Below are positions 19,398 to 42,675 of a stretch of 64,000 bases of DNA, piece after piece. A program made the translations under genes and the position numbers. This DNA is from Candidatus Binataceae bacterium (lineage in GTDB: Bacteria; Desulfobacterota; Binatia; Binatales; Binataceae). The notes beneath the pieces were generated by a model. It was not told the DNA's origin and did no database searches. It was given only the letters and a program-made list of their open reading frames with translations. Each line of letters starts with the position of its first letter. The first letter of the stretch is position 1. Where the stretch lies: assembly GCA_035533435.1 (NCBI GenBank), contig DATLTX010000058.1, positions 27 through 64,026 on the forward strand, written 5' to 3'.

Positions 19398-19642
19398 CAG
19401 CGTGTTGCGTATGGATTGGCGAACAGCAGCAGCAGAGCCACCACGAGGCAGTAAATCGCCATCGTTTCGATCATCGCAAGTCCGACAAACAGCGTGCGCG
19501 ACAGCGCGCCGGCCGATTCCGGCTGCCTTGCGATACCGTCCATCGCGGCGGCAATCGCGCGCCCTTCCGCCAGCGCCGGGCTGATCGACCCGACCACCAC
19601 GGCCAGCACGGCGCCAATTATGCTTATCATCTGCACGGTCAT
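19397..19642 (-). CDS. atpE: ATP synthase subunit c (two membrane carboxylates)
   Basis: 81-aa helical hairpin with the ARQPE loop. Glu is present in helix 2 (MIETMAIY) and also at the helix-1 position equivalent to Gln32 of Na+-binding c subunits. The start is an ATG preceded by GGAGG; the ORF-track start is too far upstream. Confidence 0.8.
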   Translation of the reverse strand: MTVQMISIIGAVLAVVVGSISPALAEGRAIAAAMDGIARQPESAGALSRTLFVGLAMIETMAIYCLVVALLLLFANPYATR

Positions 19643-19658
19643 ACCTGATCCTCCCTGA

Positions 19659-20327
19659 CTACTTCTCGATCGAACCGACGGCGCCGCCGATATAGACCGC
19701 GGCCAGCACCGTGAATATGTAGGCCTGCACCAGCCCGACCAGTATTTCGAACGCCATGAATGGAATCGGCACCAGCAGCCCGGCCAGCGCCACAACTATC
19801 GCGATTACCAGTTCGTCGCTCATGATGTTGCCGAACAGCCGCATCATCAAGGAGAACGAGCGGGTGAATTCAGAAAGTATGTTTAGCGGCAGGAGCATCG
19901 GGTTGGGTCTCAGATAGCCCTTGAGATAGCCACCGAGTCCGTGAAGCTTCACGCCGAAAACGTGCACCGAAAAAAAGACAATCGTAGTCAGCGCCGCCGG
20001 AGTTTCGAGCGAAGCGGTGGGCGCGCGGACCCCGGGCAGAATTCCCGAGAGATTGGCAACCACAAGGAAAATGAACAACGTTCCCAGCATCGGCAGAAAT
20101 TCCGACGGATCGTGATTGACTATTCCCCGAACCTGTTCCTCGATCTCCGTCACCAGCGTTTCAAGCATCGCCTGGAGACTATTTGGAACCACGCGCAAAT
20201 GACGTGTCGCGAGACGGCAGGCGATCGCGAGCGCCGCTATCAGCACCCAAGTCGTTACCACGGGACCGGTAATGATAACCGGACCGATATGAAACACGAC
20301 GGCTACTTCGAGCGGAGAACGACTCAT
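19659..20327 (-). CDS. atpB: ATP synthase subunit a
   Basis: Five-TM a-subunit with the conserved Arg in the penultimate helix (LSEFTRSFSLMMRLFGNI). Start corrected to the internal Met (MSRSPLEV), which overlaps the atpR stop as ATGA. Confidence 0.8.
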   Translation of the reverse strand: MSRSPLEVAVVFHIGPVIITGPVVTTWVLIAALAIACRLATRHLRVVPNSLQAMLETLVTEIEEQVRGIVNHDPSEFLPMLGTLFIFLVVANLSGILPGVRAPTASLETPAALTTIVFFSVHVFGVKLHGLGGYLKGYLRPNPMLLPLNILSEFTRSFSLMMRLFGNIMSDELVIAIVVALAGLLVPIPFMAFEILVGLVQAYIFTVLAAVYIGGAVGSIEK

Positions 20328-20608
20328 CGCACCGCCTCTGTCGCCGAAGCTTTTGCGCGAACGGCGAAGACCCTCGCCAACTGGAGCCCGGCCGCAACGC
20401 AAAGCAGAGGAGCCGCGCCGAATCTGGCGACCCCGGCCAATCCGGCGGCGACGCCGAATAGGCGCAGCGCGTGAATTGGCGCCGCAAGGCGAGATTGGGC
20501 GCTCCCGCAGTAGAGCCGAACGTTCCATTCGAGCGCGCCGAAGAATGCCGCACCGAGCGCCGTTCCCAGGACGAGAAAAAACCCCAGTTTGAGCCCCGCG
20601 ATATTCAT
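20324..20608 (-). CDS. atpR: N-ATPase-specific small membrane protein AtpR
   Basis: 94-aa protein with 3 predicted TMs and membrane-embedded Arg residues. Its position between atpQ and atpB is diagnostic of N-type ATPase operons. Confidence 0.55.
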   Translation of the reverse strand: MNIAGLKLGFFLVLGTALGAAFFGALEWNVRLYCGSAQSRLAAPIHALRLFGVAAGLAGVARFGAAPLLCVAAGLQLARVFAVRAKASATEAVR

Positions 20609-20913
20609 GCCTGCGTGTGCATCCTTTGCCAGACCAGGTAAAAGCCCGCCGCCACGCCAAGGAAAACCAGCGTCGCGCTCCAGAAAACCCCGGAGTCAAA
20701 AACCCCGTCCAGCCAGCGGCCGACGAACGCGCCCAACAGCGGCGGCCCGACGATGGTCCATCCGAACCTGCCCATCATCGCGAGTGCGCGTCCGAGCGGC
20801 CATTCTCCGGTTCGGTCCCAGTATTCGCTTCTGGCTCGCACTTTATCGACAGCCTTGGCGAGCTTGCGCTCCTCCTCGTCGGAAGGTCCGCCGTTCTTGG
20901 AGTCGCCGGTCAT
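20605..20913 (-). CDS. atpQ: N-ATPase AtpQ (AtpI/AtpZ-like) membrane protein
   Basis: About 100-aa protein with two predicted TM helices. It sits immediately after atpC and is translationally coupled (ATGA) on both sides. Confidence 0.5.
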   Translation of the reverse strand: MTGDSKNGGPSDEEERKLAKAVDKVRARSEYWDRTGEWPLGRALAMMGRFGWTIVGPPLLGAFVGRWLDGVFDSGVFWSATLVFLGVAAGFYLVWQRMHTQA

Positions 20914-21338
20914 GGTTTGCGCACCAGCGGATCCCACGGTTGTTCACCTGGACGCAGGTAGCGGTAGAGCTGCTGAATTACGGCTTGCTGAAGACCCAAC
21001 GCTCCGAGCCGCGCGGCCTGTTCCGTCTCTGCGTTTTTCGTCATCTGCGCAAGAACGACCTCGCGCAAAATTTTGAGGCCTTCGCCCAGAACCGCTTCCC
21101 GCGTAGCGACCTCGACCGATTTGCCCTCGCGCACGCGAAGAACGCCGCCACGAACCGCCGCATAGTGTTCCAGGCCGGAGCGGTCGCGCCAGACGAGCAC
21201 ACTGATCGCCAGCGCCGTCAGAAAATCCGCATGTCCCGGCTGTATTCCGAAAGCTCCAGTCGAATCTTCGGCGCGGACGTGGCGCACGTTGTCCGCGCTG
21301 ACGACGATCGCGGTGGGAGTGGTGATGACCAGTTTCAT
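20910..21338 (-). CDS. atpC: ATP synthase epsilon subunit
   Basis: N-terminal beta-sandwich (GAFGIQPGHADFLTAL) and a C-terminal helical hairpin. Confidence 0.8.
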   Translation of the reverse strand: MKLVITTPTAIVVSADNVRHVRAEDSTGAFGIQPGHADFLTALAISVLVWRDRSGLEHYAAVRGGVLRVREGKSVEVATREAVLGEGLKILREVVLAQMTKNAETEQAARLGALGLQQAVIQQLYRYLRPGEQPWDPLVRKP

Positions 21339-21347
21339 CGGCGCGCG

Positions 21348-25368
<4,021 letters not shown>

Positions 25369-25372
<4 letters not shown>

Positions 25373-26541
25373 CCAGACGAGAAAAGCACCCGGTAGGTAT
25401 GCCGGGCGATCATCAGGTCTTCGTTGGTCGGGATGACGCGAACCCGGCAGCGGCTGGCGATCGAGCTGACCGTGTCGGCGTTGGCTTCATTACGCTCGCG
25501 ATCGAGGCTGATACCCAAATGCTCCAGCCCGGCGCAAATCTCCCAGCGTACCGGGGCGGCGCGCTCGCCGATTCCACCGGTGAAAACCAGCAGATCGAGT
25601 CCCTCCAGTGCGGCGGTTAGCGCGCCGATTTGTTTGCGCACCTGGTAGCAGAACATCGCCACGGCCTGGGCGGCGTCGGGTTCCCTGTCTCTGCGTTCCA
25701 GCAGCGTCTTCATGTCCGAGCTGATGCCCGAGACGCCCAGCAGGCCGGACTGATCGTTGACGAGCAGTTCGAGTTGCCGGGAATCGAGATGTTTCGCACC
25801 CTGCAGATAGACCATGATTCCCGGATCAAGATCGCCGCTGCGGGTTCCCATCATGAAACCGCCGCTCGGTGAAAATCCCATCGTGGTATCCAGCGGCCGT
25901 CCGCCGCGCACGGCCGCCATGCTCGCGCCGTTTCCGAGATGAGCTATTATCACCCGCGGAGGAGGACTAATGCCCAGGGTCCGCATGATGTACTCATAGG
26001 AGATACCATGAAATCCGTAGCGGCGGATGCCGTCGTTCCAGAACGCGCGCGGCAGCGCGAAGCGCTCGGCCACTTCAGGCATCGCGCGATGAAAAGCCGT
26101 GTCGAAGCAAGCAACCTGCGGGAGATCGGGAAAGCGCGAAGCGACCGCTTCGATACCGGCAATCTCGTCAGGCAGGTGCAGGGGAGCAAACGGCACCAGA
26201 CTTCGCAGCTCGCCGATAAGAGCGTCGGTGATCCGTTCCGGCGCCGCATGAGCGGGGCCGCCATGTACTATTCGGTGGCCGACCGCGTCAGGAGGCCGAA
26301 TACTCAGTCGCTCGAGTCCGGCAAAGGCAGCCCGCACGCCCGCTTGTGGCTCGAAGAAATCCTCGCCGGTGCTCTCGCTTTTCCCGCTGCCGGAGCTAAT
26401 CCACAGACGGGCGCCGCGCGCGCCGGTGCGCTCGATTGCGCCTTGCGCGAGCAACTCTTCGCCTCCACCGTCAAGCCGATAGAGCGCGAATTTCCGCGAC
26501 GAAGAGCCGCTGTTCAGGCAGAATATATTTTTTGGCGCCAT
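25369..26541 (-). CDS. ackA: acetate kinase
   Basis: ASKHA fold with N-terminal LNSGSSSRKFAL and an acetokinase signature. Overlaps the downstream gene by 4 nt. Confidence 0.9.
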
Positions 26542-26569
26542 CGCACGCCCGCCAGCTCGCAGGTTGTCT

Positions 26570-28978
26570 TTAGTATGGCCATTTCCAGTGCTCGATTTCC
26601 GGCTTGTCGATTCCGTGCTCGAATGCGTATTTCAGGTTCTCGTATATCTGGTCGGTTAGCCATTTCTTGACATGCGCGCCGCTTCCCTGCAGACGCGGCA
26701 CGCGATTGATTACGTCGATCGCAAGATTGAAGCGGTCCACCTGATTACTGATAGCCAGTTGCAGGGGAGTATTGATGCTTCCGAATTCCTTGTAGCCGCG
26801 CACATGCAGGTTGGCGTGATTGGCGCGCCGGTATGCGAGCTTGTGAATCAGCCACGGATAGCCGTGAAAGTTGAATATGACCGGCTTGTCGATCGTGAAC
26901 AAGCTGTCGAAATCGCGATCGCTGAGGCCGTGCGGATGCTCGGTTGACGGTTCGAGCTTGAACAGATCGACGACGTTGACGAAACGAATCTTCAAATCGG
27001 GAAACCGTTCGCGCAGAATCGCGGTCGCCGCCAGCGCCTCAGTCGTCACCACGTCGCCCGCGCTGGCTATTACCACATCAGGCTCGGCGCCCTGATCGGT
27101 GGAAGCCCATTCCCACAGGCCCAGGCCCTGTGCGCAATGGCGCTCGGCCGACTGCATATCAAGAAATTGGATATGCGGCATCTTGTCGGCGACGATCACA
27201 TTTATGTAGTTGGTGCTGCGCAGGCAGTGATCGCCAACGGAGAGCAGGCAATTCGCGTCAGGCGGCAGATAGATTCGCGTCACCAATGCGCTCTTGTTGG
27301 TAACCACGTCGATAAAACCCGGGTCCTGATGGGTAAAGCCGTTGTGATCCTGACGCCAGACCGTCGAGCTGATCAGGATGTTGAGCGACGACACCGCCGC
27401 CCGCCACGCGACTTCGCTGCGGCATTTCTCGAGCCACTTGGCGTGCTGATTGACCATCGAGTCGATCACGTGCGCAAACGCCTCGTAGGTCGAGAACAGC
27501 GCGTGTCTGCCGGTCAGGACGTAGCCCTCCATCCAGCCCTCGAGGTTATGCTCGCTCAGCATTTCCATCACCCTGCCGTCGGGCGACAGGTCGCCGCCGT
27601 CGTCGTCTTCGGGCTTGCGCTCGGCGAGCCAGGTTTTTTTGCTCACTTCGTAGATTGCCTGAAGCCGGTTCGACGCGGTTTCATCGGGACCAAAGACGCG
27701 AAAGCTGTGCATGTTCTCGCGCATCACGTCGCGCAGAAAGGTTCCCAGCACATACGTATTCTCGGCTTCGACGCGGCCCGGATGCTCGACTTTGACGGCG
27801 TAGTCGCGAAATTCCGGCATCCGCAGCGGCTTTCGCAACAGCCCGCCGTTGGCGTGAGGGTTGGCGCTGATCCGGCGGGCGCCGCGTGGCGCAAGCTCGG
27901 CAAGTTCGGCGACGAGTTTTCCCGCGCGATCGAACAACTCCTCGGGACGATAACTGCGCATCCAGCTTTCCAGAATTTTCAGATGCGCGGGATTGGCGGC
28001 AACGTCCAGGATCGGAATCTGATGCGCGCGCCACGAACCCTCGATCCGATGCCCATCGAGCTCTTTTGGCGCCGTCCATCCTTTCGGCGACCGCAGAATT
28101 ATCATCGGCCAACGCGGTCGCCCCGCCACGCCGCTTTGTCGAGCCTGCTCCTGGATCGATCGGATATCGCCGATGCATCGTTCCAGCGTGGCCGCCATCT
28201 TCTGATGCATCGCAAGCGGATCGTCGCCCTCGACGACATGGGGCGCGTACCCATAGCCATTGAATAGCGCCTCGAGTTCCTCGTGCGGAATGCGCGCCAG
28301 CACGGTGGGGTTCGCGATTTTGTATCCGTTCAGATGCAGGATCGGCAAAACCGCGCCGTCGCGGATGGGGTCCAGAAATTTGTTCGAATGCCACGAGGTC
28401 GCGAGCGGGCCGGTCTCCGACTCGCCGTCGCCAACCATCGCAACCACGAGCAGGTCGGGATTGTCGAAGGCCGCGCCGAACCCATGCGAGAGGCTGTAGC
28501 CGAGTTCGCCACCCTCATGAATCGAGCCCGGGGTTTCAGGCGTGCAATGGCTGCCGATACCGCCGGGAAAGGAAAACAATTTGAAAAATTGACGCAGCCC
28601 CTCTTCGTCCTGGCTCCGATCGGGATAGATCTCGGAGTAGGTTCCTTCGAGGTAGCTGTTCGACAGCACCGCGGGCGCTCCGTGGCCCGGGCCGGAGATA
28701 TAGAGCACATTCAGATCGCGCGCTTTGATCAGGCGGTTCAGATGGACCAGGACCAGCGACTGGCCCGGATCGGATCCCCAATGTCCGAGCAGGCGGCGCT
28801 TGATATGTTCGGCGCGAAGCGGCTCCCGCAGAAGAGGATTGTCGCGCAGATACAGCATCCCGACGCACAGGTAATTGCAGGCGCGCCAGTAAGCGTCGAT
28901 CTTGCGCAATTCGTCGGCGCTCAGCGGCGATGCGCCCGCTTTCGGATCGATCTTCTCTCCGTCAGCCATCTGATTCAC
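26570..28978 (-). CDS. xfp: phosphoketolase (xylulose-5-P/fructose-6-P phosphoketolase)
   Basis: 802 aa with the XFP N-terminal signature ([27 protein letters not shown]), TPP-binding motifs, and a C-terminal XFP domain. Confidence 0.9.
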
Positions 28979-29099
28979 CTTTCCGCTCGCGATTCGCCAG
29001 AGATCGTCGATACTATCATTAACGATAGTCCCCGGAGCTGATGTCCAAAACCATTAATCGGTGTGACGCGCCGGAGATTGAGAGCGACGATGTATCGAG

Positions 29100-29115
29100 A
29101 GCAATCGGCGTGCCG
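29100..29115 (-). promoter_or_regulatory. candidate sigma54 -24/-12 promoter for xfp-ackA-phosphorylase-atp unit
   Basis: Minus-strand cGGCACGccgaTTGCt with exact GG-N10-GC spacing, ~120 nt upstream of the xfp ATG. Confidence 0.55.
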
Positions 29116-29268
29116 CTGGTTCGCGCGCGAATTGCGATGTCTCGCAAAGCCGACGGCGCCGCCGCGAACCGACCAAACGGCACAACCGCCAGTCAAGCGA
29201 TGCACCCAAAAGACGCATCGCGCCGCTTGCGCAAGCTCATCGGCACGTGAAACCGCCTTCGTTCGAGT

Positions 29269-29284
29269 TGGCTCGATTTTAGCT
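29269..29284 (+). promoter_or_regulatory. candidate sigma54 promoter for CBS-Dx-metal-ABC operon
   Basis: TGGCtCGatttTaGCt with GG-N10-GC, 50 nt upstream of ATG 29335. It overlaps a 14/15-nt tandem direct repeat. Confidence 0.4.
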
Positions 29285-29300
29285 CCTCGATTCTAGCTCG
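29272..29300 (+). repeat. tandem direct repeat CTCGATTTTAGCTC / CTCGATTCTAGCTCG
   Basis: Two adjacent 14/15-nt copies with a single mismatch, overlapping the -12 element of the 29269 promoter candidate. Confidence 0.6.
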
Positions 29301-29334
29301 ATGATGAGAGTGCAAAGCAACGGAGGATGACGCG

Positions 29335-29817
29335 ATGAAAGTCGAAAACATGATGAATCGCGAGGTCAAAACCTGTCATCCGCAGGACCGCCTCAACCAG
29401 GGCGCCCAAGTCATGTGGGAAAATACCTGTGGCGCCGTTCCGGTCGTTGACCAGCAATCCCGCCCGGTCGGATTCCTCACCGACCGCGACATCTGCATGG
29501 CCGCCTACACGCAGGGCAAGCGCCTTCAGGAGATGACCGTCGAGGGCGCGATGTCGCATAAGATTGTCACCTGCCACGCCGATGACGACCTGTCGGCCGC
29601 GATGAGAACGATGGCCGAGACGGGACTTCGCAGGCTGCCGGTGACCGGCCAGGACGGCTCACTGGTCGGGATCCTGTCGCTCGATGATATTGCTTGCGAA
29701 GCGGGAAGAACGATGCGGGGCGGCGTGAATTTGGAGTTGCGCTCGCAGGTCGCCGACATCACAATCGCGGTCTGTCGAGGCCGGGTTAAGGCCCGTGCTC
29801 CAATCAAATCTGACTGA
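29335..29817 (+). CDS. CBS domain pair protein
   Basis: Two CBS motifs (VKTCHPQDRLNQGAQVMWENTCGAVPVVD... and IVTCHADDDLSAAMRTMAETGLRRLPVTG...). Confidence 0.8.
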   Translation: MKVENMMNREVKTCHPQDRLNQGAQVMWENTCGAVPVVDQQSRPVGFLTDRDICMAAYTQGKRLQEMTVEGAMSHKIVTCHADDDLSAAMRTMAETGLRRLPVTGQDGSLVGILSLDDIACEAGRTMRGGVNLELRSQVADITIAVCRGRVKARAPIKSD

Positions 29818-29825
29818 GGGTACTT

Positions 29826-29966
29826 ATGCCGACGCTTGGAAAACGGTATCTATGCGAGAAGTGCGGAACCGAAGTTCTGTGCAACAAGGCCGGCGCCGGC
29901 ACCCTCGAATGCTGCGACGCGCCGATGAAGATCAAAGAAGCAAAGCCACTGCCCTCGTCCGACTAG
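29826..29966 (+). CDS. desulforedoxin-like small metal-binding protein (not in ORF track, 46 aa)
   Basis: The ORF is MPTLGKRYLCEKCGTEVLCNKAGAGTLECCDAPMKIKEAKPLPSSD. The motif C-x2-C ... GTLxCC matches the Cys4 pattern of desulforedoxin. A GAGGG RBS lies 7 nt upstream. Confidence 0.55.
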   Translation: MPTLGKRYLCEKCGTEVLCNKAGAGTLECCDAPMKIKEAKPLPSSD

Positions 29967-30003
29967 GCGCGCGCAAATCCCGACTTGCCGGGGCATCCGC
30001 AGC

Positions 30004-30714
30004 GTGAAGAATTCGACGATTCTCGAGGTTGAGCGGCTGGCGGTCCGTTTCGGCTCGGCTGAAGTTTTCTCCAATCTGACCTTTCAGGTCGCGCGCGGCA
30101 GTTCTTTGGCGGTCATCGGACCCAACGGCGCGGGCAAGACGGTCCTGTTCCGGGCGCTGATCGGAGTTCAGCAGTACGCGGGATCCGTACGCTGGACGCC
30201 GGGAACCAAAATCGGTTACGTGCCGCAGAAGCTTGATATCGAGCGCGATCTTCCCATCACCGCGAACGATTTTCTGCGCGCAAGAACTTCTGTCGCGCGC
30301 GCAAGCAGGGACGAGCCGCTGCGCGTGCTGGCTCGGGTAGGGTTGGAACCCGCCCTGCTCCATCAGCAGATCGGCACGATGTCGGGCGGACAGTTTCAGC
30401 GGCTGCTCATTGCGTTCGCGCTAATTGGGCATCCCGATGCATTGCTGCTCGACGAACCTGCAGCCGGGATGGACGCGCCCGGGCAGGAGAAGCTCAATGA
30501 TACGCTGCGTTCGCTCCAGACCGATGACGGGGTGACGATCCTGTTCATCTCCCATGACTTGAGCGTCGTTTACGGCTACGCCTCACAGGTGCTGTGCCTG
30601 CGACGCGGAGACTCTCGTATGGGCCCACCCGAAGAAGTTCTTACCCCCGATCGACTGAAAGAAATCTACGGCACGCCGATCGCCTTCCACATTCACGAGA
30701 GCAATGGAAACTAG
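30004..30714 (+). CDS. metal (Zn/Mn) ABC transporter ATP-binding protein
   Basis: Walker A GPNGAGKT, signature MSGGQFQRLLIA, Walker B LLLDEP. ZnuC/MntA-like size. GTG start. Confidence 0.8.
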   Translation: MKNSTILEVERLAVRFGSAEVFSNLTFQVARGSSLAVIGPNGAGKTVLFRALIGVQQYAGSVRWTPGTKIGYVPQKLDIERDLPITANDFLRARTSVARASRDEPLRVLARVGLEPALLHQQIGTMSGGQFQRLLIAFALIGHPDALLLDEPAAGMDAPGQEKLNDTLRSLQTDDGVTILFISHDLSVVYGYASQVLCLRRGDSRMGPPEEVLTPDRLKEIYGTPIAFHIHESNGN

Positions 30715-31456
30715 GGCACTGGTGCTTTCAACCGAGATGGCAGTCGCGGCCGGGACGGTCGGATGCTTTGCCGTGATGCGCAAAATGACGCTGGCAGCCG
30801 ACGCGTTTTCGCACGTCGCCCTGCCCGGCATCGGTTTGGCCCTTGTCATGCGGCTTAATCCGCTGCTCGGCGCGGTCGCGGCCCTGATGCTCGGCGCGTT
30901 AATCATTTGGGGAGTCGAGAACCGCACCGGAATATCGACCGAAACCATCACCGGTGTGGTGTTTTCGCTCGCGCTGGCGATCGGCAGCATGATGGCTTCG
31001 GGTGAGGAGTTGATCGATGCGTTGTTTGGCGCCCCGGGCGCGCTGTCGAACACCGAGGCGACGGTGGGTCTGGTGGGCGGAGCGGCAGTCATCGCGTTCA
31101 TGCTGTTCGCCAGAGATCGACTGCTGATCTCGATGGTCTCGGCGGAAGTCGCGGCCACCTCCGGAATCAACGTGCGACGCCTGAACCTGGCCTATCTTGC
31201 CGCTTTCGCGCTGACCGTCGCACTCGGTCTGCGTTACCTTGGGGTTCTGCTGATGGGTTCGTTAATAATCATCCCGGCCGCAACCGCAAAGCGCATCGCC
31301 CGCAACATCAATGGAATGCTGGCGATCGCCGTGGGTGTTTCGGTCGCTTCCACGCTTCTCGGAACCTTGATCGCCGCTTCGATTCATCGCCCGACCGGCC
31401 CGATAATCATCACGATCGCGGGCGCGCTGTTTTTCCTGAGCCTTGCATGGCGCTGA
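30704..31456 (+). CDS. metal ABC transporter permease (ZnuB/MntB family)
   Basis: Eight-TM ABC-3 permease pattern (DAFSHVALPGIGLAL). Overlaps the ATPase gene. Confidence 0.8.
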   Translation: METRALVLSTEMAVAAGTVGCFAVMRKMTLAADAFSHVALPGIGLALVMRLNPLLGAVAALMLGALIIWGVENRTGISTETITGVVFSLALAIGSMMASGEELIDALFGAPGALSNTEATVGLVGGAAVIAFMLFARDRLLISMVSAEVAATSGINVRRLNLAYLAAFALTVALGLRYLGVLLMGSLIIIPAATAKRIARNINGMLAIAVGVSVASTLLGTLIAASIHRPTGPIIITIAGALFFLSLAWR

Positions 31457-31592
31457 AAGCGGTCGTCGCGGCGGCCGCCAGGTCCCCGATCTCGAGTGCA
31501 TTGGATGTATCGATCGGAGTCATCGGACGGTTTGATCCGCGATTGAAGGGCGTCGGGCCGGCGCTTATTGCACCGGCGACCAGTCACGCCAT

Positions 31593-31608
31593 TGGCATCG
31601 CCGTTGCT
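31593..31608 (+). promoter_or_regulatory. candidate sigma54 promoter for HlyD/ABC-2 efflux operon
   Basis: TGGCATcgccgTTGCT, ~15-25 nt upstream of the HlyD start codons. Confidence 0.4.
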
Positions 31609-31621
31609 CCTCTTGACCGAT

Positions 31622-32737
31622 ATGGACGTTCCCATGAGTCCCGAAACGGCTCAGGAATCCCGATTCAGCCGACGTCGAGTGGTGTTGTCGATCGCGGCGG
31701 CGGCGATCCTGGCGGGCGCTGCGACTTACGGGTTCCTGATTTGGCAGTATGCCGGAGCGCAGAAGTCGCTGACGCTTTACGGCAATGTCGATATCCGCGA
31801 AGCCCAGCTCGCATTCAACGACAACGAACGCATCACGCGGATGCTGGTGCAGGAAGGCGATTATGTCCATCCGGGTGAGTTGATCGCCGAACTGGAAACC
31901 GTGCGCTACGCGGCCGCCGCGCAGCAGGCCGAAAAGCAGGCGGCCAACCAGCGCCAGGTTCTGACCCGGATGCTAAACGGCTCGCGCCCGGAAGAGATTG
32001 TACAGGCGCGCTCAACGATGCAGGCGCTGGAGGCGACGCTTCGCGACGCCGAGATTACCTATCATCGCAATCTCGAACTCCGGCGGCATCTTGTCATCCC
32101 GGAGCAGACCCTCGACGACTCGATCGCGCAGATGAATTCGGCTCGGGGAAATTACGAAGCCGCGCACCAAGCCTATATCCTGGCCGTCAAAGGACCGCGG
32201 ATCGAAGATATCAACGCCGCCAGCGAGCTGCTCAAAGCCGACGAGGCGGCGCTGGCGCTGGCTGAGCGCGAACTCCACGACACGAAACTTTACGCGCCGT
32301 CGGTCGGCGTAATCGAAGACCGCATCCTCGAGCCGGGCGATATGGCGTCGCCGGGAGTGCCGGTCTTCACGATGGCGCTGACCAATCCGCTATGGGTGCG
32401 CGCATACGTTCCGGAGATTTACCTGGGCAGAATCTATCTGGGTATGAAGGCGTCGATCACGACCGACAGCTTTCCCGGCAAGATTTTTAATGGATGGATC
32501 GGCTACATATCGCCGACCGCCGAATTCACGCCCAAGAACGTCGAGACGCCCGAGCTGCGGACGCGGCTCGTTTACCAAGTGCGCGTATACGCCTGCAATC
32601 CGCAAAATGAACTCAGGCTCGGGATGCCCGCGACGGTGACGGTCGCGCTCGATCAACCGATCCCGAACGCAAACCAGGTAAACGGCCTTGGATGCGGAAA
32701 CCAAAGTCAGCGCGACGGACAAGCCGAAATCCGCTGA
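31622..32737 (+). CDS. HlyD-family membrane fusion protein
   Basis: N-terminal TM, a biotinyl/lipoyl-like hairpin and a long coiled coil, followed by a beta-barrel C-terminal domain. The start is uncertain (31622 or 31634). Confidence 0.7.
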   Translation: MDVPMSPETAQESRFSRRRVVLSIAAAAILAGAATYGFLIWQYAGAQKSLTLYGNVDIREAQLAFNDNERITRMLVQEGDYVHPGELIAELETVRYAAAAQQAEKQAANQRQVLTRMLNGSRPEEIVQARSTMQALEATLRDAEITYHRNLELRRHLVIPEQTLDDSIAQMNSARGNYEAAHQAYILAVKGPRIEDINAASELLKADEAALALAERELHDTKLYAPSVGVIEDRILEPGDMASPGVPVFTMALTNPLWVRAYVPEIYLGRIYLGMKASITTDSFPGKIFNGWIGYISPTAEFTPKNVETPELRTRLVYQVRVYACNPQNELRLGMPATVTVALDQPIPNANQVNGLGCGNQSQRDGQAEIR

Positions 32738-34493
32738 AGTCGCGCTGCGGCTCGAGTCCGTCAGCAAGCGTTTTCAGGAAGCCGCGCACACGGCTCAGGC
32801 GCTCGACCAGGTTAGTATCGTGGCCAAGCGCGCGATCATAACCGGACTGATTGGTCCCGACGGCGCGGGCAAAACCACCCTGATGCGCCTGGCCGCCGGG
32901 CTGCTCGCTGCCGACGCCGGAAAAATCACGGTGCTCGGAATAGACGTCGCCGCCGAGCCGCAGCGTGTTCAATCGATAATCGGATACATGCCGCAACGCT
33001 TCGGCCTGTACGATGACCTGAGCGTGCAGGAGAACCTTGACCTGTACGCCGACCTGCACGGCGTCGGCCCCGCCGAGCGGCCTGATCGATACGCCGATCT
33101 GATGCGGATGACCGGGCTTGCACCTTTCACAACCCGGCTTGCCGGCCGTCTGTCCGGTGGAATGAAGCAGAAGCTGGGCCTTGCCTGCGCGCTGGTCGGC
33201 TCGCCGCCGCTGCTGCTGCTGGACGAACCCACGGTTGGCGTCGATCCGGTCTCGCGCCGCGAACTGTGGGCGATAATCCATCGCCTCGTCGCCGATCGCG
33301 GCGCAACGGTCCTGCTCAGCACCGCGTACCTTGACGAAGCCGAGCGCTGTACCGAGGTCATCCTGATGCATGACGGCAAGCTGCTCGGCCAGGACGATCC
33401 GGCCGCGTTCACGAGCAAGCTCGCGGGCCGGAGCTTTCAAGTCTTCGCGCCGGGCATCTCAAAGCGCGCGCTCCAGGAGCGGGTGAGCAGAGCGCCGGGA
33501 GTTCTGGACGCGATAATTCAGGGCTCTCGAGTTCGCGTCGTTACCGAACAGGCGACGCCGCCAACCGCCGAGCAATTGGTCGGTGGCGAATACGCGGTCG
33601 AGATCGCGCCGGTTGCCCCGCGCTTCGAAGACAGCTTCGTAAGCCTGCTCAAAGGACCCGACGGTCGTGACATACCCGTCGCGAATCACGCGCCCGGCGC
33701 AGCGCCGCGAGCGAGCGGAGCTGGGGCGCCTGACGTGATCGCGGTGCGCAACCTGACCCGCCGCTTCGGGGATTTTTACGCCGTCCGCGACGTAACTTTC
33801 ACGGTCCGGCGCGGGGAAATTTTCGGTCTTTTGGGCGCCAACGGCGCTGGCAAATCGACCACGTTCCGGATGCTGTGCGGTCTGCTGCCGGCTTCGGAAG
33901 GCACCGTGCAGGTTGCGGGGCTCGATCTGCGCCGCGCGGCGGCGCGCGCGCGCGGGCGCATTGGTTACATGGCGCAGAAATTCTCGCTGTATGGCGACCT
34001 TTCGGTGTTGCAGAACCTGCGCTTCTTCAGCAGCGTCTATGGACTTTCCGGAGACCATCAGCGCGCGCGTCTCGCATGGGCGCTCGAGGAATTCGAGCTC
34101 GCTCCGTTCGCCGACGCGACCAGCCGCGATCTTCCGCTTGGTTTCAAGCAGCGCCTCGCGCTCGCGGTGGCGCTGATGCACCAGCCCGACATCCTGTTTC
34201 TCGACGAGCCGACCTCCGGCGTCGATCCGCTCGGACGGCGCGACTTCTGGCGCCGGATCAACGCGCTCGCCGAGAGCGGAATCACGATCATGGTCACTAC
34301 TCACTTCATGGAAGAAGCCGAGTATTGCGACCGATTAGTCATAATGGCGCAGGGCCGGATTCTCGCCGAAGGAACCTCCGAGGAAATGAAGGCGCGCTTC
34401 ACCACCGATGCGCTCCCGAACCCGACCATGGAGGACGCCTTTGTCGCGCTCATTACCGAGTCCGAGAGTCATCGCGTCGAGGCCGCCGCATGA
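32688..34493 (+). CDS. ABC transporter ATP-binding protein with duplicated ATPase domains (RbbA/YhiH-like)
   Basis: Two Walker A motifs (GPDGAGKTT, GANGAGKST) and two ABC signatures. The start may be a non-ATG codon downstream of 32688, since the called start overlaps the HlyD gene by 50 nt. Confidence 0.85.
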   Translation: MDAETKVSATDKPKSAEVALRLESVSKRFQEAAHTAQALDQVSIVAKRAIITGLIGPDGAGKTTLMRLAAGLLAADAGKITVLGIDVAAEPQRVQSIIGYMPQRFGLYDDLSVQENLDLYADLHGVGPAERPDRYADLMRMTGLAPFTTRLAGRLSGGMKQKLGLACALVGSPPLLLLDEPTVGVDPVSRRELWAIIHRLVADRGATVLLSTAYLDEAERCTEVILMHDGKLLGQDDPAAFTSKLAGRSFQVFAPGISKRALQERVSRAPGVLDAIIQGSRVRVVTEQATPPTAEQLVGGEYAVEIAPVAPRFEDSFVSLLKGPDGRDIPVANHAPGAAPRASGAGAPDVIAVRNLTRRFGDFYAVRDVTFTVRRGEIFGLLGANGAGKSTTFRMLCGLLPASEGTVQVAGLDLRRAAARARGRIGYMAQKFSLYGDLSVLQNLRFFSSVYGLSGDHQRARLAWALEEFELAPFADATSRDLPLGFKQRLALAVALMHQPDILFLDEPTSGVDPLGRRDFWRRINALAESGITIMVTTHFMEEAEYCDRLVIMAQGRILAEGTSEEMKARFTTDALPNPTMEDAFVALITESESHRVEAAA

Positions 34494-35614
34494 ATCGCGA
34501 GTTGATAATGAGACTGCGCGGACTGCTGCGCAAGGAGTCGCTCCAGATACTGCGCGATCCCTCGAGCATCGCGATCGCCTTCGTGATGCCGGTGGTGCTG
34601 CTTCTGCTTTTCGGCTATGGCGTTTCGCTCGATGCCAAGCGGGTGCCGCTCGCGCTGGTGGTTGAGCAGCCCAATCGCGACACTGCGAACTTCATCGCGG
34701 GATTCTTTCAGTCGCCCTACTTCGTGCCGGTCCGCTTCGCGACCATCCAGGAGGCCGACGCCGCGATGAACACGCGACGCGTCGAAGGGATCGTATGGCT
34801 GCGCAGCAACTTCAGCCGCCAGATGCTGAGCGGGGGCAATGCCCCGATTGGGCTGATCGTCAACGGCGTTGACGCCAACAACGCGCGCATTATCGAGGGC
34901 TACATCCAGCAGGTCTGGGCTAACTGGATCGCGCAGTTCTATGCCAGCCAGGGGCTGCGGCTGAAGACCCCGGTCCAGGCCGACGTGCGGATCTGGTTCA
35001 ACCCCGCCGTGGCCAGCACCGACTTTATCGTCCCCGGCCTCATCGCGGTCATCATGACTCTGACCGGAGCACTGCTGACCGCGATGGTGGTGGCACGCGA
35101 ATGGGAACGCGGCACGATGGAGGCACTGCTGGTCACTCCCGCCAGCATTCACGAGATTATCCTGAGCAAGCTCGTTCCATACTTCGTTCTCGGCATGGGC
35201 GGAATGATTCTGTCGGTAATGATGGCGTTGTGGCTATTCGCGGTCCCGTTGCGCGGCTCGATATGGGTATTGATGGCGTCGTCGGGAGCGTTTCTGTTGT
35301 GCGCGCTCGGGATGGGGCTGGTGATATCGACGGTCAGCAAGAACCAGTTCGTGGCCGGTCAAATCGCGATCATAGTAACCTACCTGCCGGCGTTCATGCT
35401 GTCCGGTTTCATATTCGATCTCCACAGCATGCCTGTCGTTATACAGTGGATTACTCATATTGTCGCGGCGCGCTATTTCGTGACTATCCTGCAGAGTGTA
35501 TTCCTTGCCGGCAACGTATGGTCCGTGACCGTGCCGAATATCATCGCATTGCTGGTAATGGCGGCGATCTTCCTCGGTATGGCGCGGCTTATGGCCCGCA
35601 AGAGTCTCGAGTGA
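34490..35614 (+). CDS. ABC-2 family transporter permease
   Basis: Six-TM ABC-2 permease. The start ATGA overlaps the ATPase gene stop. Confidence 0.8.
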   Translation: MNRELIMRLRGLLRKESLQILRDPSSIAIAFVMPVVLLLLFGYGVSLDAKRVPLALVVEQPNRDTANFIAGFFQSPYFVPVRFATIQEADAAMNTRRVEGIVWLRSNFSRQMLSGGNAPIGLIVNGVDANNARIIEGYIQQVWANWIAQFYASQGLRLKTPVQADVRIWFNPAVASTDFIVPGLIAVIMTLTGALLTAMVVAREWERGTMEALLVTPASIHEIILSKLVPYFVLGMGGMILSVMMALWLFAVPLRGSIWVLMASSGAFLLCALGMGLVISTVSKNQFVAGQIAIIVTYLPAFMLSGFIFDLHSMPVVIQWITHIVAARYFVTILQSVFLAGNVWSVTVPNIIALLVMAAIFLGMARLMARKSLE

Positions 35615-36732
35615 TGAAGGCGATGCTGAACCGGGTCGTCGCACTGGTCATCAAGGAACTGCTCGCCCTGCTAAGGGATTCCAGGAGCCGCTTCGTCCTG
35701 CTGGCGCCGCCGATCATCCAGCTCATGGTGTTCGGTTACGCGGCTACGTTTGACCTGAACCACGTCCCGTTCGCGATCTACAACGAGGATCCAAGCGAGG
35801 CGTCGCGCGATCTGGTCGCACGCTTCGAGGGCGCCCCGACGTTCCAGGAGATCGCGCGCCTCCACAGCGACGCCGAAGTCGCGCCGCTAATCGACCGGCG
35901 CCAGGCGCTGATGGTCTTGCACATCGACCGGCGCTTCAGCCGCGATCTGCTGACCGGCACGCCGGGTCGCGTGCAGATTATCCTTGACGGGCGCAACTCC
36001 AACACCGCGCTCTTGGTGATGGGCTACGCGAGCACGATCCTCGCCGATTTCGACACCCAATGGGCTGCAGACCATGGCGGATTCAATCCGCCGGCCACAC
36101 TGGATATTCGCGCCCGCTACAACGCGAATCTCGAATCGCGATGGTTCATCATTCCCGGCATCGTGGCGCTCCTGACCCTGGTGGTTACGCTCGTCGTCAT
36201 CGCGCTCTCGGTTGCGCGCGAGCGCGAAGCCGGGACCTTCGATCAATTGCTGGTAACACCGTTGCGCCCGATCGACATCCTGCTCGGCAAAAGCATCCCG
36301 GGCTTTCTCATCGGAAGCTTCGAGGCGAGCGTCATCATCGCCGCTGGCGTGCTGTGGTTCGGCGTGCCGCTGCGCGGAGGATTTGCACCGCTGTACATCG
36401 GGATGTTCCTGTTCCTGCTGTCAGTAATCGGGGTTGGGCTGATGATCTCGTCACTCGCGGTGACACAGCAGCAAGCGTTGCTCGGCACTTTCATGTTCCT
36501 GGTGCCCGCGGTCATCCTTTCGGGCTTCGCCACTCCGATCGCCAACATGCCGCCGGCGGTGCAGTATATGACCTACATCAATCCGATGCGCTACTTCCTG
36601 ATAGTGGTACGGGGGGTCTTTTTGGAGCGCGCTTCGACCTATTCGCTCTTGCCATTGTACTGGCCGATGTTGCTAATCGGGCTCGCGACCCTGACGATGG
36701 CGGGATGGCTCTTTCGCAGGCGGCTTTACTAA
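35614..36732 (+). CDS. ABC-2 family transporter permease (paralogue)
   Basis: Paralogous to the preceding permease. The TGATG overlap indicates translational coupling. Confidence 0.8.
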   Translation: MKAMLNRVVALVIKELLALLRDSRSRFVLLAPPIIQLMVFGYAATFDLNHVPFAIYNEDPSEASRDLVARFEGAPTFQEIARLHSDAEVAPLIDRRQALMVLHIDRRFSRDLLTGTPGRVQIILDGRNSNTALLVMGYASTILADFDTQWAADHGGFNPPATLDIRARYNANLESRWFIIPGIVALLTLVVTLVVIALSVAREREAGTFDQLLVTPLRPIDILLGKSIPGFLIGSFEASVIIAAGVLWFGVPLRGGFAPLYIGMFLFLLSVIGVGLMISSLAVTQQQALLGTFMFLVPAVILSGFATPIANMPPAVQYMTYINPMRYFLIVVRGVFLERASTYSLLPLYWPMLLIGLATLTMAGWLFRRRLY

Positions 36733-36754: not shown

Positions 36755-38770
36755 TTACTTCACTTGCCGGACGGACTCCGGACGCGCGCGCTGCGCGGGT
36801 TCATCCGCCGCTGGCCGGGCACCGAGGATCTGAGCTAACTCCTCGGGACCGACGGTCTCTTCGCGCAGCAGCGCCGCGGCCAGCGCGTCGAGCAGCGCTC
36901 GCGCATCAGTCAGTCGGCGGCGAACGTCGTCGTGAGCTTCCTCGATCAGGCGTTGAACGTCCTGGTCGATACGGGCCGCGGTGGCTTCGCTGTAGTCGCG
37001 ACCCTGCGAAATCTCATAGCCCAGAAACGGCTGCTGCTCGTCGGTCTTGAACGCCACCGGGCCAAGTGTGCCCATACCCCATCGCGTGACCATCCGCCGC
37101 GCAAGCCGGGTAGCCTCAACGAGGTCGTTCTCGGCTCCGGTGGTCACCTCGTTGAATACTAACTCCTCGGCCGAGCGTCCGCCGAGCATCACCGCCAGCC
37201 GCGCCTTGAGGTAGGCGAGGCTGAGGTTGTGCCGCTCCTCGCCGGGAATCTGCTCGGTCAGGCCCAGCGCCTGCCCGTGAGGTACGATCGTAATCTTGTG
37301 TACGGCGTCGGCCTGGGGCGTGAGCCACGCCACGAGTGCGTGCCCCGATTCGTGATAGGCGATAACGCGGCGCTCCGCGGGATCGACCAGATGCGGCTGC
37401 GCGGCGCCGAGGCGGACCTGATCTTGCGCCTCTTCGAAATCCGCCATGGTGACGGTTTCGTGATTGTGCCTGGCGGCGGTAAGCGCGGCCTCGTTACAGA
37501 GATTGCCCAGGTCGGCGCCGCTCATCCCGATCGTGCTGCGGGCCAGAGTAGCGAGATCCACGCTTGCGTCCAGATGCAGCCTGCGCGAGTGGATGCGCAA
37601 AATGCCTTCGCGCCCTTTGCGATCCGGCAATCCGATAACCACCTGGCGATCAAAGCGCCCCGGCCGCAGCAGCGCCGGATCGAGAACGTCGGGCCGATTG
37701 GTGGCGGCCAGAATGATCACCTCGATTCGCTCATCGAAGCCATCGAGTTCGCCGAGCAACTGGTTAAGAGTCTGTTCGCGCTCGTCGTTGACGGTGCCAA
37801 GGCCCGCGCCGCGCCGCCGTCCGACCGCATCGAGTTCGTCGATAAATACGATTGCGGGAGCGGATGCCTTGGCCTGGCGAAACAAATCCCGCACGCGGCT
37901 GGCGCCCACTCCAACGAACATCTCGACGAACTCCGAAGCGTTCAGGCTGAAGAATGGAACTCCCGCTTCTCCGGCGACAGCGCGCGCCAGCAGCGTTTTT
38001 CCAGTCCCGGGCGCTCCGACCAGCAGGACTCCTTTTGGGATGCGCGCTCCGAGGTCATGGTATTTCTTCGGGTGCTTTAGAAAATCGACCTCCTCCTGCA
38101 ACTCGGCTTTGGCTTCGTCGGCACCGGCCACGTCGTCGAAGGTCACCTTCGGAGCTTCGCTACTATAGCGTCGGGCCTTCATCCGGCCGATGCCGAACAT
38201 TCCGGATTGTCCGCGACCCGCGCGGCTGCTCATCCACCAGAAAAATCCAATCAACAGCATTACGGGCAGCCATTCGAGCAGGAATCCGACAAACCATGGC
38301 GCAGAGCTCGGCGACACGTCGACCAGGACCTTGTGGCTTAAGAACAGCGCCATCAGGCCGGGATCGCCGACCGCAACAGGGAAGGTGGTATGAAAGGCGA
38401 GGTAGGAAATCGCGGGTTCCGATGGTGTCGGCGGGGGCGCAGGCTTCGCCGGTACCGCAGGCTCGGGAGCAGGCGCGGGCTCGACCTTTGGCGGCTGCGC
38501 CGCTTTAGGCGCGGGCGAGAGCACAGGTTTCAAGAATGTGCCGGTGATCGAATCACCAACAATATGTACCTTTGCAACGTTATCGGCACGCACCTGCGCG
38601 ACAAACCCCGAGTAGGGAATTTCAAGTTCGGGTTTCGAGCGCGGCCACAGCGAAATCGCGTTCCAAATCAGGAACGCGGTCAGAATCAGCCACCACCACC
38701 AGACCCCCTGGGGAGGCGTCTGGCGCGGCGCCGGTGGCTTTGGCGCGGTATCGTCTTGCTGGACTGCCAT
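36755..38770 (-). CDS. ftsH: ATP-dependent zinc metalloprotease FtsH
   Basis: N-terminal TMs, AAA+ Walker A GAPGTGKT and SRH, and the HEXXH zinc motif (HESGHA). Confidence 0.9.
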
Positions 38771-38877
38771 GCGCGTCTGCTGAACGTTACCATTTCATCG
38801 CAAACGCACAATCCGCACCACTGCCATGCGCCAATGATTTTTCAGCGAGGCTCCGAGATTGCTCGCGAACTGGCGGT

Positions 38878-39807
38878 TCAGGCCGCCGCCCAGCGGGGAC
38901 TCGCGCCGATACGGGCTAGCACCTCCATCACGCGATGCGGCTCGCCCAGATCGCTCCAGTCCACTCCGCGCATCGGCAGCACCCCCAGGTTGAATGATGT
39001 GCGCTCAAGTATCTGCTTGGAGAAGTTGATGGGCTCCAGGCTGGCATAGAGCGCGGCAATTGCGCGCTCCTCGAACGGCGTGCCAAGGCGGCTGCGAATC
39101 TGTGCGAACGAGGCATACAGCGGCGGCGCCGCCACCATGATCAAGCCCAGCAGGGTCGAGACGCGCGCCACGATCACAAAGCTGTTCCACAGGCATCCGC
39201 GGTTGAACAACTCCAGCGCGAGTTCGCGCGACGGCTTTTCCCAGAAACGCCGGACCCGGAACACCGCCGCCGCATCTCCTCCAAACGACTGCGCGGGTTC
39301 GATCCATCCATACCCGATCTCTGGTCCGGTTGGCGCGACACCGATCAACACGGTCAACTCCGGTCGAACCCGGGTGGCGTTGAATGCGAGCGCGATCTGT
39401 TCGGCGAATTTGCGGTCGTCGCTGACGTAATGATCCGACGGGAGCAGCGCGACGGTCGCGGCCGGCATCGTTCGCGCTATGCGCAGCAGCGCGTAGAGAA
39501 TCGCCGGCGCGGTGCCGCGATTCTCGGGCTGTATCACCATGCTATCAGCCAGAGCATCGGCGAGAATCGGCGCGTAGAAGCGTTCGTGCGCGCGGGTAAG
39601 CACCGTCAACGTCCGCGACCGTCCTGCTATCAGGGACGCGCGATGACGCGTCTGCTCGAGCAGCGTGGTTGCGCCGAGCACCGGGCAGAATTGTTTAGGC
39701 ACCTCCTGACCCGAAATTTTCCTGGTCAGAGACCGCAGCCGCGTCCCGTCACCGCCCGCCAGGATAATCGCCACATTATCCGCCGCTCGGTTACCCGACG
39801 CTTCCAT
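38878..39807 (-). CDS. sugar-phosphate nucleotidyltransferase (mannose-1-P guanylyltransferase-like)
   Basis: N-terminal AIILAGGDGTRLRSLT pyrophosphorylase signature. Confidence 0.7.
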   Translation of the reverse strand: MEASGNRAADNVAIILAGGDGTRLRSLTRKISGQEVPKQFCPVLGATTLLEQTRHRASLIAGRSRTLTVLTRAHERFYAPILADALADSMVIQPENRGTAPAILYALLRIARTMPAATVALLPSDHYVSDDRKFAEQIALAFNATRVRPELTVLIGVAPTGPEIGYGWIEPAQSFGGDAAAVFRVRRFWEKPSRELALELFNRGCLWNSFVIVARVSTLLGLIMVAAPPLYASFAQIRSRLGTPFEERAIAALYASLEPINFSKQILERTSFNLGVLPMRGVDWSDLGEPHRVMEVLARIGASPRWAAA

Positions 39808-39997
39808 GAGATGTACCTCGGCTTATCCCGGGCAGTCAGACGCAAGGAGTCTGCCAATTGCAATAGTGCCGCGGCGCACGATTCCGCGTGGTGCGTATTG
39901 CAGGGTGAGAGCGATGGCTGTGGCGATCAGCGCCACAGTGTGGCTCCATTCTGTAGCTGTAAGAGGCAGCTCGACCGAAAAATCTCCACGCTCGCGA

Positions 39998-40013
39998 TGG
40001 CACGACCTTCGCT
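39998..40013 (+). promoter_or_regulatory. candidate sigma54 promoter for Usp-CBS gene 1
   Basis: TGGCACGaccTTcGCt. Shares CGATGGCACGAC with the paralogue promoter. Confidence 0.55.
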
Positions 40014-40041
40014 CACTTCGAGATTGAAGGAGTTCGTCAGG

Positions 40042-40845: not shown

Positions 40846-40852
40846 ACGCTGA

Positions 40853-40876
40853 TGCCGATTGAGGCATCGCATAGCG
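40853..40876 (+). terminator. hairpin downstream of Usp-CBS gene 1
   Basis: GATGCC-gattga-GGCATC stem-loop (6-7 bp stem) 8 nt after the stop codon. No U-tract, which is usual in high-GC genomes. Confidence 0.3.
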
Positions 40877-41036
40877 CGCGAAATGTCGCCATCGGCAACA
40901 TCTCATGAGAGATTTGCACTTTAGCATGATCGATTTTGTTGATGTTTCAACGTCCAATCAGTATAGCTGGGCAACATCAGCAAGCGATTTCTTTCGGGAC
41001 CGTGAAACGCGCAAGCAACTGTAATGATCCGGGGGA

Positions 41037-41052: not shown

Positions 41053-41098
41053 CCCCCCGGCAGTGAGCCAAATCCATGATCGCCACGGGGGAGTCAGT

Positions 41099-42661: not shown

Positions 42662-42675
42662 GGGGAGCAACGATC

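Follow-up and report, generated by a model that had tools for sequence, protein, structure and literature searches.

The open reading frame (ORF) at positions 29826-29966 (plus strand) of a 64,000-nucleotide stretch of DNA from a Candidatus Binataceae bacterium (contig DATLTX010000058.1; the whole stretch is called the window below) is almost certainly a real, translated gene, and it encodes a small protein resembling desulforedoxin (Dx). Judged by its sequence features, the protein belongs to a distinct, widespread and undescribed subfamily of about 46-47 amino acid residues, here called the tailed Dx, which is marked by an N-terminal G-K-R-Y, a fifth cysteine and the end ...KPLPSSD. The copy in the window appears to be a duplicated paralogue that was recruited to metal(loid)-handling modules. 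Its product may assist P-loop transport ATPases in the cytoplasm as a thiolate-rich accessory that binds metal(loid)s (a chaperone, a buffer or a sensor), a reading that is put forward tentatively and at somewhat less than an even chance.

The 46-codon ORF runs from the ATG at 29826 to the TAG at 29964-29966, and its product is MPTLGKRYLCEKCGTEVLCNKAGAGTLECCDAPMKIKEAKPLPSSD. The ATG is located 9 nt past the last base (29817) of the ORF of a CBS gene, which leaves a gap of 8 nt, and 37 nt lie between the stop codon and the GTG start (30004) of an ABC ATPase gene. A Shine-Dalgarno-like GAGGG (29816-29820, plus strand), read from the sequence, is found 5 nt 5' of the ATG and overlaps the TGA of the CBS gene (29815-29817). 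The ORF bounds, the number of codons, the GAGGG ribosome-binding site and the 9-nt and 37-nt spacings given in a preliminary description of this region were all confirmed in the sequence, and so was the Cys4 motif that had been likened to that of desulforedoxin. C10, C13, C29 and C30 form the pattern Cys-x2-Cys-x15-Cys-Cys, with the same spacing as C9/C12/C28/C29 of D. gigas Dx, whose sequence as quoted in that description agrees with PDB 1cfw. The codons of the first ligand pair, Cys10-x-x-Cys13 (29853-29864, plus strand), align with Dx C9/C12, and those of the vicinal second pair, Cys29-Cys30 (29910-29915, plus strand), with Dx C28/C29. The fifth cysteine, Cys19 (codon 29880-29882, plus strand), lies in an L-C-(N/T)-K motif at the position of Val18 in classical Dx. 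The C-terminal tail K-P-L-P-S-S-D (codons 29943-29963, plus strand), which classical Dx does not have, runs to the C-terminus of the protein. Together with the N-terminal G-K-R-Y, these features give the window protein all three marks of the tailed Dx. The preliminary description had not picked up the traits that set the family apart most clearly, namely the tail, the fifth cysteine and the partner protein Dx39 described below.

Since 80 ORFs of at least 30 amino acids overlap the surrounding 6.5 kb, an ORF of such size is no evidence by itself. In a six-frame scan of the window, the sole CxxC...CC motif in a meaningful ORF was that at 29826-29966. When the gene was compared in a codon alignment with nine relatives of its own class, the ratio of nonsynonymous to synonymous differences (pN/pS) was 0.05-0.14 (pooled 0.077), with pS values of 0.72-0.95, near saturation, and pN values of 0.04-0.11. 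The GC content of the gene is 0.72 at third codon positions (GC3), against 0.53 at first (GC1) and 0.49 at second positions (GC2), in a window of 62.7% GC. The GenBank entry HVA76918.1 ('hypothetical protein VNF27_03440 [Candidatus Binataceae bacterium]'), from a contig of 642,668 bp, is identical in sequence; gene callers also predict the Dx gene on the contigs of relatives, and two metagenome contigs, L102 and L103 (loci carry L numbers and proteins P numbers below), hold a locus identical to that of the window. The gene had been presented as unannotated and as one of those that gene callers miss. For public data neither statement was borne out, because the exact match shows that current pipelines do pick the gene up and only leave it without a name.

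Desulforedoxin, a textbook case of an Fe(Cys)4 mini-protein, is known from sulfate reducers, and what it does in the cell is still unclear. The Pfam family PF06397 (Desulfoferrod_N) matched the window protein with 31.3 bits (gathering score, 23; E=1.6e-7), residues 6-35 being aligned on profile positions 5-34 of 36. The cut-off of NCBIfam TIGR00319 (desulf_FeS4) was missed (25.1 bits vs 36.05), and TIGR00320 (desulfoferrodoxin, a 2Fe superoxide reductase, 2Fe-SOR) failed at 25.6 bits against 146.9, residues 5-40 covering the N-terminal 36 profile positions only. Among PDB sequences the best match was D. gigas Dx, followed by the N-terminal domains of 2Fe superoxide reductases. An AlphaFold2 (AF2) model built on 55 homologues, with a mean predicted local distance difference test score (pLDDT) of 75, shows three short strands; the mean pLDDT of the tail is 55, and at this low confidence the tail is probably flexible. 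The top Foldseek match in the PDB was 1dxg_A (root-mean-square deviation 1.3 Å over 34 columns, 41% identity, target-normalised TM score 0.79, probability 1.0), and the runners-up were N-terminal domains of desulfoferrodoxin (Dfx). The Pfam score, the PDB matches and the predicted fold thus support the earlier desulforedoxin-like assignment, and on the model the window protein is very likely to have the Dx fold with a metal site. Judging from its ligands, the intact Cys4 site is expected to bind a single metal ion in a tetrahedral centre of thiolates.

The size of the tailed subfamily was estimated with several searches. The close clusters from a word-indexed search number at least 134 (77-91% identity); almost all have 46-47 amino acids and, where named, come from Candidatus Binataceae. 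An exhaustive profile search gave about 1,040 representatives at 50% identity, and a profile word search gave at least 2,412 clusters at 90% identity, which span Chloroflexota, Acidobacteriota, Deltaproteobacteria/Syntrophales, WOR-3 and Acidimicrobiia and carry the names 'desulfoferrodoxin', 'desulforedoxin' or 'hypothetical'. Two longer entries, P0379 (604 aa) and P0392 (508 aa), cluster at 90% identity with 47-aa Dx proteins; they probably stem from read-through or from a gene call merged with that of the amidohydrolase downstream. None of the curated Pfam and NCBIfam models describes the tailed subfamily, and nothing on it was found in the literature on desulforedoxin-like small proteins, including that on zinc and enoyl-CoA hydratase links.

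Homologues that keep the Cys4 site are present: the four ligand cysteines do not vary among the close relatives that were aligned (55 of 55), and neither do G5, K6, R7, Y8, C19 and most of the last ten residues. Every matching domain in hand was then aligned (330 tailed, 108 untailed), and the 196 tailed domains less than 70% identical to any Binataceae copy were taken as a distant set. In this distant set, the terminal Asp was found in 100% of the domains, Ser, Ala or Gly at position 46 in 99.5%, Pro44 in 96% and G-K-R-Y in 94-97%. The first Cys pair (C10/C13) was kept in 85-87% and the fifth Cys in 73.5%; the fourth ligand position was Cys in 50.5% and His in 25.5%, and all four Cys were present in 47%. 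In the tailed subfamily the tail and GKRY (94-100%) are more conserved than the Cys4 ligands, and the fifth Cys (74-84%) is also kept more often than the complete Cys4 set. The fifth Cys occurs in 84% of all 330 tailed domains, compared with 32% of the untailed ones.

The genomic context was classified for 181 family instances, with 89 genome or assembly loci and 80 metagenome contigs in the set at that stage. In 158 of them, the tailed Dx lies between a GCV_T/YgfZ-like gene and an acyl-CoA operon. The operon of Binataceae consists, in this order, of Amidohydro_3, enoyl-CoA hydratase, acyl-CoA ligase, enoyl-CoA hydratase and, as the last gene, Dx39, a second, untailed PF06397 gene of 39 amino acids. 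This order is strictly conserved (for example L002:4964-11333; also L006-L009, L010-L089 and most of L102-L181). Outside Binataceae, two enoyl-CoA hydratase (ECH) genes, a ligase or CoA-transferase gene and Dx39 are followed after 23-37 nt by the tailed Dx and a gene for an NMO-family flavoenzyme; the variant with CoA-transferase A/B and the NMO flavoenzyme was found in other phyla (L095-L101). Divergent upstream of the canonical operon, a conserved hydrophobic ORF of 47 amino acids (MGAFLFGFICGVGATVFAFVYDEGEIFLKL...; L002:4658-4801, minus strand) and a gene for a protein of about 641 amino acids without a Pfam match (L002:2714-4639, minus strand) were observed, and both are present, next to EF-P, in most Binataceae loci.

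Fusions were also found. In 51 proteins, a Dx39-like domain is fused to the tailed domain (e.g., P0121, P0145, P0273 and P0280), and other fusions carry an N-terminal domain of about 60 amino acids without a Pfam or NCBIfam match (P0181, P0195, P0197, P0204 and others). One tailed domain is fused with a 2Fe-2S ferredoxin domain (P0250), and many two-domain Dx forms have lost every Cys ligand yet keep the tail. Given the fusions, and given that Dx of the D. gigas type is a homodimer, the simplest reading is that the tailed protein (Dx47) and Dx39 would form a heterodimer analogous to the Dx homodimer.

The window copy belongs to a minority class of the family, the members of which share the loop ...AGTGTLECCGEPM..., in the window in the version CCDAPM. 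One metagenome-assembled genome (MAG) holds three family copies, including a canonical one, so that the copies are paralogues. The third copy in that MAG (L050; MAG MFD02416.bin.1.126, contig CAWAKE010000010.1), which lies outside the locus set retrieved with the motif regular expression, is 80% identical to the window protein. The N-terminal length ('MP.L' vs 'MAN.L') was considered as a class marker and rejected: P0005, which has the first 21 residues of the window protein, lies in a canonical operon, so the paralogue class is not recognisable from the N-terminus.

Copies of the paralogue class recur beside transport genes. In four lineages (the window with L102/L103; L001/L104; L090/L091; L147), Dx is followed by the genes for an ABC ATPase and an ABC-3 permease, and the gaps measure 5-37 nt. 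The ATPase and the permease of the window are 63% and 68% identical to the pair of L001, where CDF efflux genes flank the unit. No gene for a substrate-binding protein was seen in the vicinity of the ABC-3 pairs at window:30004-31456, L001:6147-7644 and L090:6147-7698, and in L001 and L090 the pair is followed by an 82-aa YkoF/Thiamine_BP-like gene and by genes for S-adenosylmethionine (SAM) methyltransferases weakly similar to ArsM. In two lineages, L092 and L187, the order is OEP, Dx, ArsA, together with a divergent HlyD/ABC/ABC-2 unit; the ABC ATPase and HlyD of L092 are 75% and 55% identical to those of the window, and L187 has the same layout. The ArsA proteins of the relatives pass the NCBIfam equivalog cut-off of 650 bits (749 and 733 bits, the latter for the L092/L187 class) and keep the three metalloid-binding cysteines. 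No arsD was called in the L092 and L187 loci. In these loci (L092:1-8087 and L187:196-7842), a genuine ArsA stands beside an outer-membrane factor and an efflux unit instead of ArsB or Acr3.

A further setting is the ars island of L012 (1-8586), in which genes for an ArsC-like protein, a rhodanese and ArsR on one strand are followed by ArsM, ArsA, CBS, an insertion sequence (IS), Dx and OsmC; the IS, whose transposase gene lies at 5959-7278, sits as an insertion between CBS and Dx. The 16 kb of L012 showed no arsD, arsB or acr3. Dx is likewise followed by OsmC in L111, and integrase remnants lie beside Dx in L185 and L186.

A conserved CBS-Dx-znuCB arrangement had been suggested in the preliminary description. 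The part from Dx onwards was found in the four lineages with Dx, ATPase and ABC-3 permease, but most instances (158 of 181) have the acyl-CoA context, and the CBS part did not stand. The CBS genes beside Dx in L012, L107 and L110 are only 24% identical to that of the window, and the window holds at least four CBS genes, namely that at 29335-29817 and at least three further ones; CBS-Dx is therefore rejected as a conserved orthologous pair. No hidden conserved ORF was found when the CBS-Dx spacers of L107, L110, L012 and L111 were aligned. According to this alignment, the Dx genes of L012 and L111 use a GTG start.

In the window, the gene upstream of Dx (29335-29817, plus strand) encodes a stand-alone CBS-pair protein of 160 amino acids (PF00571, two CBS stretches, E=1.8e-24), and with the 8-nt gap it is probably co-transcribed with Dx. 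Downstream lie the genes for a ZnuC/AztA-like ABC transporter ATPase (30004-30714, plus strand; PF00005) and an ABC-3 family, metal-type permease (30704-31456, plus strand; PF00950, 166 bits), the start of the latter overlapping the end of the former. The closest NCBIfam matches of the pair are ZnuC/AztA and ZnuB/AztB, at under half of the curated cut-offs (ZnuC, 144.4 bits vs 306; ZnuB, 111.3 bits vs 284). A gene for a Zn/Mn-type substrate-binding protein (ZnuA/TroA) was found neither in the Pfam-scanned ORFs of the window, which are not all of its ORFs, nor in the gene calls for L001, L090 and L091, and it may lie elsewhere in the genome. The Zn/Mn uptake system proposed earlier was thus not borne out, as the ZnuC and ZnuB cut-offs were missed and no substrate-binding protein gene was found nearby; by these scores, neither the specificity of the ABC-3 pair nor its direction of transport is established.

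Further downstream on the plus strand, Pfam matches identified an HlyD-family adaptor (31568-32737), a double ABC ATPase (32688-34493) and two ABC-2 permeases (34490-35614 and 35611-36732). These genes form an efflux-type unit (31568-36732) that is also found next to the Dx copies of L092 and L187. A phosphoketolase gene (26570-28978, minus strand) lies upstream of the CBS gene. Neither ArsA nor OEP nor a second Dx (no Dx39) was found in the window, and Dx39 and acyl-CoA genes are absent beside the window copy. Scanned in full against Rfam at gathering thresholds, the window gave no match, so that no riboswitch or leader accounts for the region. When 28900-31700 was scanned for sigma-70 promoters and terminators, the counts were at shuffle level and nothing was found upstream of the CBS gene, and inverted repeats in five upstream regions of paralogue-class operons revealed no shared operator.

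The window at large, notably at 17102-28978 and 36755-55434, resembles a stress or energy-reserve island. Besides the phosphoketolase gene, it contains genes for acetate kinase (25369-26541), two glycogen phosphorylase-type enzymes (22832-25372 and 11597-14104), a debranching enzyme (5879-8158), an F-type ATPase (17102-22955) and FtsH (36755-38770), two Usp+CBS genes (39430-40845 and 49908-50732) and a further CBS gene near 54082-54459. Long ORFs without a Pfam match at E<=1e-4 were noted at 41024-42661 (plus strand), 43095-45089 (minus), 48597-49676 (minus), 8260-9291 (plus), 9471-10280 (plus) and 54319-55434 (minus); some of these may be spurious, as they overlap other ORFs in GC-rich DNA. 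The real genes near 45734-48032 are those of cytochrome b and a multihaem cytochrome c-like protein.

Under the accessory reading, C10, C13, C29 and C30 would bind one metal ion, and the invariant C-terminal tail, probably together with Cys19, would be the element through which the protein docks on a partner. The tailed Dx of most genomes would act jointly with the untailed Dx39 of the acyl-CoA operon, as a heterodimer or as a fused chain. The window copy would be co-transcribed with the metal-type ABC ATPase and the ABC-3 permease, and the docking target of the paralogue would be a P-loop transport ATPase, ZnuC-like here and ArsA in relatives. ArsD, compared below, offers a precedent for such chemistry. 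A functional coupling of Dx to the downstream transporter is considered slightly more probable than its absence. The earlier idea of a metal-redox sensor or chaperone is compatible with the sequence evidence and draws some support from the ArsA-adjacent relatives.

Several observations weigh against the accessory reading. The main one is that the window paralogue is 80-89% identical to canonical copies in CoA-ester operons, which points to one shared activity, not necessarily metal trafficking. The sample of the paralogue class comprises only about 10 independent lineages, some of them with IS or integrase scars beside the gene, so the gene may be hitch-hiking. No ars genes, ArsA or substrate-binding protein gene were found in the scanned ORFs of the window; the transporter scores reach only the general families PF00005 and PF00950, which give no specificity, and no promoter, operator or riboswitch was found that ties the Dx operon to a known metal regulon. 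Moreover, the Cys4 site is often degraded, since less than half of the distant tailed domains have the complete set of Cys and 8% of all 330 tailed domains keep two ligands or fewer, while the tail is retained throughout; the core function may thus not need a metal.

The reading that survives best beside the accessory reading is a classical redox role, which is possible, though doubtful. The protein would then carry single electrons on an Fe(Cys)4 site to a reductase or an oxidative-stress enzyme, either as a homodimer or in a pair with a Dx39 from another locus, and its place next to the transporter would reflect co-regulation in a stress island, not metal trafficking. Its ligand pattern and fold are the same as those of Dx, with the four Cys invariant in Binataceae, and electron transfer would suit the ferredoxin fusion in P0250, the NMO-family flavoenzyme encoded after the tailed gene outside Binataceae, which is a possible electron acceptor, the OsmC-type peroxiredoxin directly downstream in L012 and L111, and the wealth of Usp and CBS stress genes in the window. 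However, the loss of the full Cys4 set from about half of the distant members, and of at least two ligands from some members, with the tail kept, is ill-suited to an obligatory redox centre. In addition, no reductase or oxidoreductase partner was found in the window operon, and characterised Dx has nothing equivalent to the invariant tail or the fifth Cys.

Alternatively, the tailed Dx would be a structural adaptor with a zinc-ribbon-like metal site, the tail of which plugs into an enzyme; its true partners would be the CoA-ester enzymes, and the window copy would be a duplicate in drift, functionally unconnected with the ABC transporter. This is regarded as unlikely. It would explain why the tail and GKRY are better conserved than the ligands and why the context of Amidohydro_3, ECH and acyl-CoA ligase or CoA-transferase dominates across phyla, and it agrees with the paralogue copies near IS and integrase remnants and with a CBS adjacency that is not orthologous. 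A drifting duplicate is, however, hard to reconcile with the strong purifying selection on the paralogue itself, with the conserved loop AGTGTLECCGEPM that the paralogue class has of its own, and with the Dx-ATPase-ABC-3 order, which is kept in four lineages with its short gaps (5-37 nt) despite the divergence of the transporter to 63-68% identity.

A detached N-terminal domain of a split desulfoferrodoxin, acting with a separate SOR domain, is suggested by matches to Dfx N-terminal domains and by the name 'desulfoferrodoxin' that NCBI gives to some relatives, but this reading is effectively refuted by the TIGR00320 score, which is far below the cut-off and confined to residues 5-40, by the absence of an SOR-domain gene from every neighbourhood inspected, the window included, and by the subfamily's own tail and its own partner Dx39. 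Finally, the small size and the many spurious ORFs of like length nearby might point to an ORF that arose by chance or to the precursor of a ribosomally synthesised peptide, but this has a negligible probability and is rejected, given the low pN/pS with saturated synonymous sites, the thousands of homologues, the confident prediction of the Dx fold, a conservation that spans the whole length with no leader/core pattern, and the lack of peptide-modifying enzymes among the genes found nearby.

Compared with D. gigas Dx (1dxg, 1cfw; PF06397), the window protein has the same fold and ligand spacing, a similar size and a stand-alone gene. D. gigas Dx has about 36 amino acids and consists of the domain alone; it is a redox-active homodimer with Fe in a distorted tetrahedral S4 centre. 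The window protein is extended at its C-terminus by about 10 residues, the last of which are KPLPSSD, and also has the fifth Cys and the conserved G-K-R-Y. The tailed subfamily is found in Binataceae, Chloroflexota, Acidobacteriota and Acidimicrobiia, not only in sulfate reducers, and its members are usually paired or fused with an untailed Dx-like protein and often lose ligands. Centre I of desulfoferrodoxin or 2Fe-SOR (1dfx, 2ji1, 1vzg) is a homologous domain (37-39% identity, Foldseek probability about 1.0), but the window protein has no fused SOR domain, none was found adjacent, and the tail takes the place of the linker to centre II. Rubredoxin is likewise a small Fe(Cys)4-type mini-protein; it is accessory to larger enzymes and has two CxxC knuckles, whereas the second pair of the window protein is the vicinal CC typical of Dx, and the protein has no rubredoxin family match.

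The likeness to ArsD is one of analogy only. Both proteins are small, cytoplasmic and Cys-rich, with a vicinal Cys pair and a nearby Cys; ArsD binds As(III) through its vicinal pair and one further Cys (C12, C13 and C18) and passes it to ArsA (PMC12415280). The arsD and arsA genes are frequently adjacent, and in L092 and L187 the Dx gene takes the slot directly upstream of a bona fide arsA, which is the usual place of arsD (PMC2963123). ArsD, with about 120 amino acids, has a thioredoxin-like fold, whereas the window protein has the Dx fold and gave no ArsD match at E<=1 in Pfam or NCBIfam. An arsA is found near Dx in L012 as well, but the window copy precedes an ABC ATPase, not ArsA. A bolder proposal, which we regard as a long shot, is that the tailed Dx would be a new class of docking metallochaperone on the Dx fold, a functional analogue of ArsD that would also serve ABC-3 transporters without a substrate-binding protein. 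The vicinal Cys pair and nearby cysteines would then capture soft metal(loid)s (As(III), Zn, Cd), and the KPLPSSD tail would dock on ArsA or on ZnuC-like ABC ATPases, to which the ion would be handed over.

What is known here is the Pfam family and the deposited protein; the tail, the fifth Cys, the Dx39 partner with its fusions, and the contexts are undescribed. Should the accessory reading be wrong, the window gene would be an ordinary member of its family, named 'hypothetical protein' in GenBank. A distinct subfamily of Dx-fold genes, numbering thousands, has emerged from soil Binataceae, Chloroflexota, Acidobacteriota and Acidimicrobiia, and its tail and fifth Cys, its dedicated partner and its acyl-CoA context offer a testable handle on Dx proteins outside superoxide reductases. 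The recurring place of the paralogue upstream of metal-type ABC ATPases and of genuine ArsA suggests a possible new accessory of metal(loid) transport.

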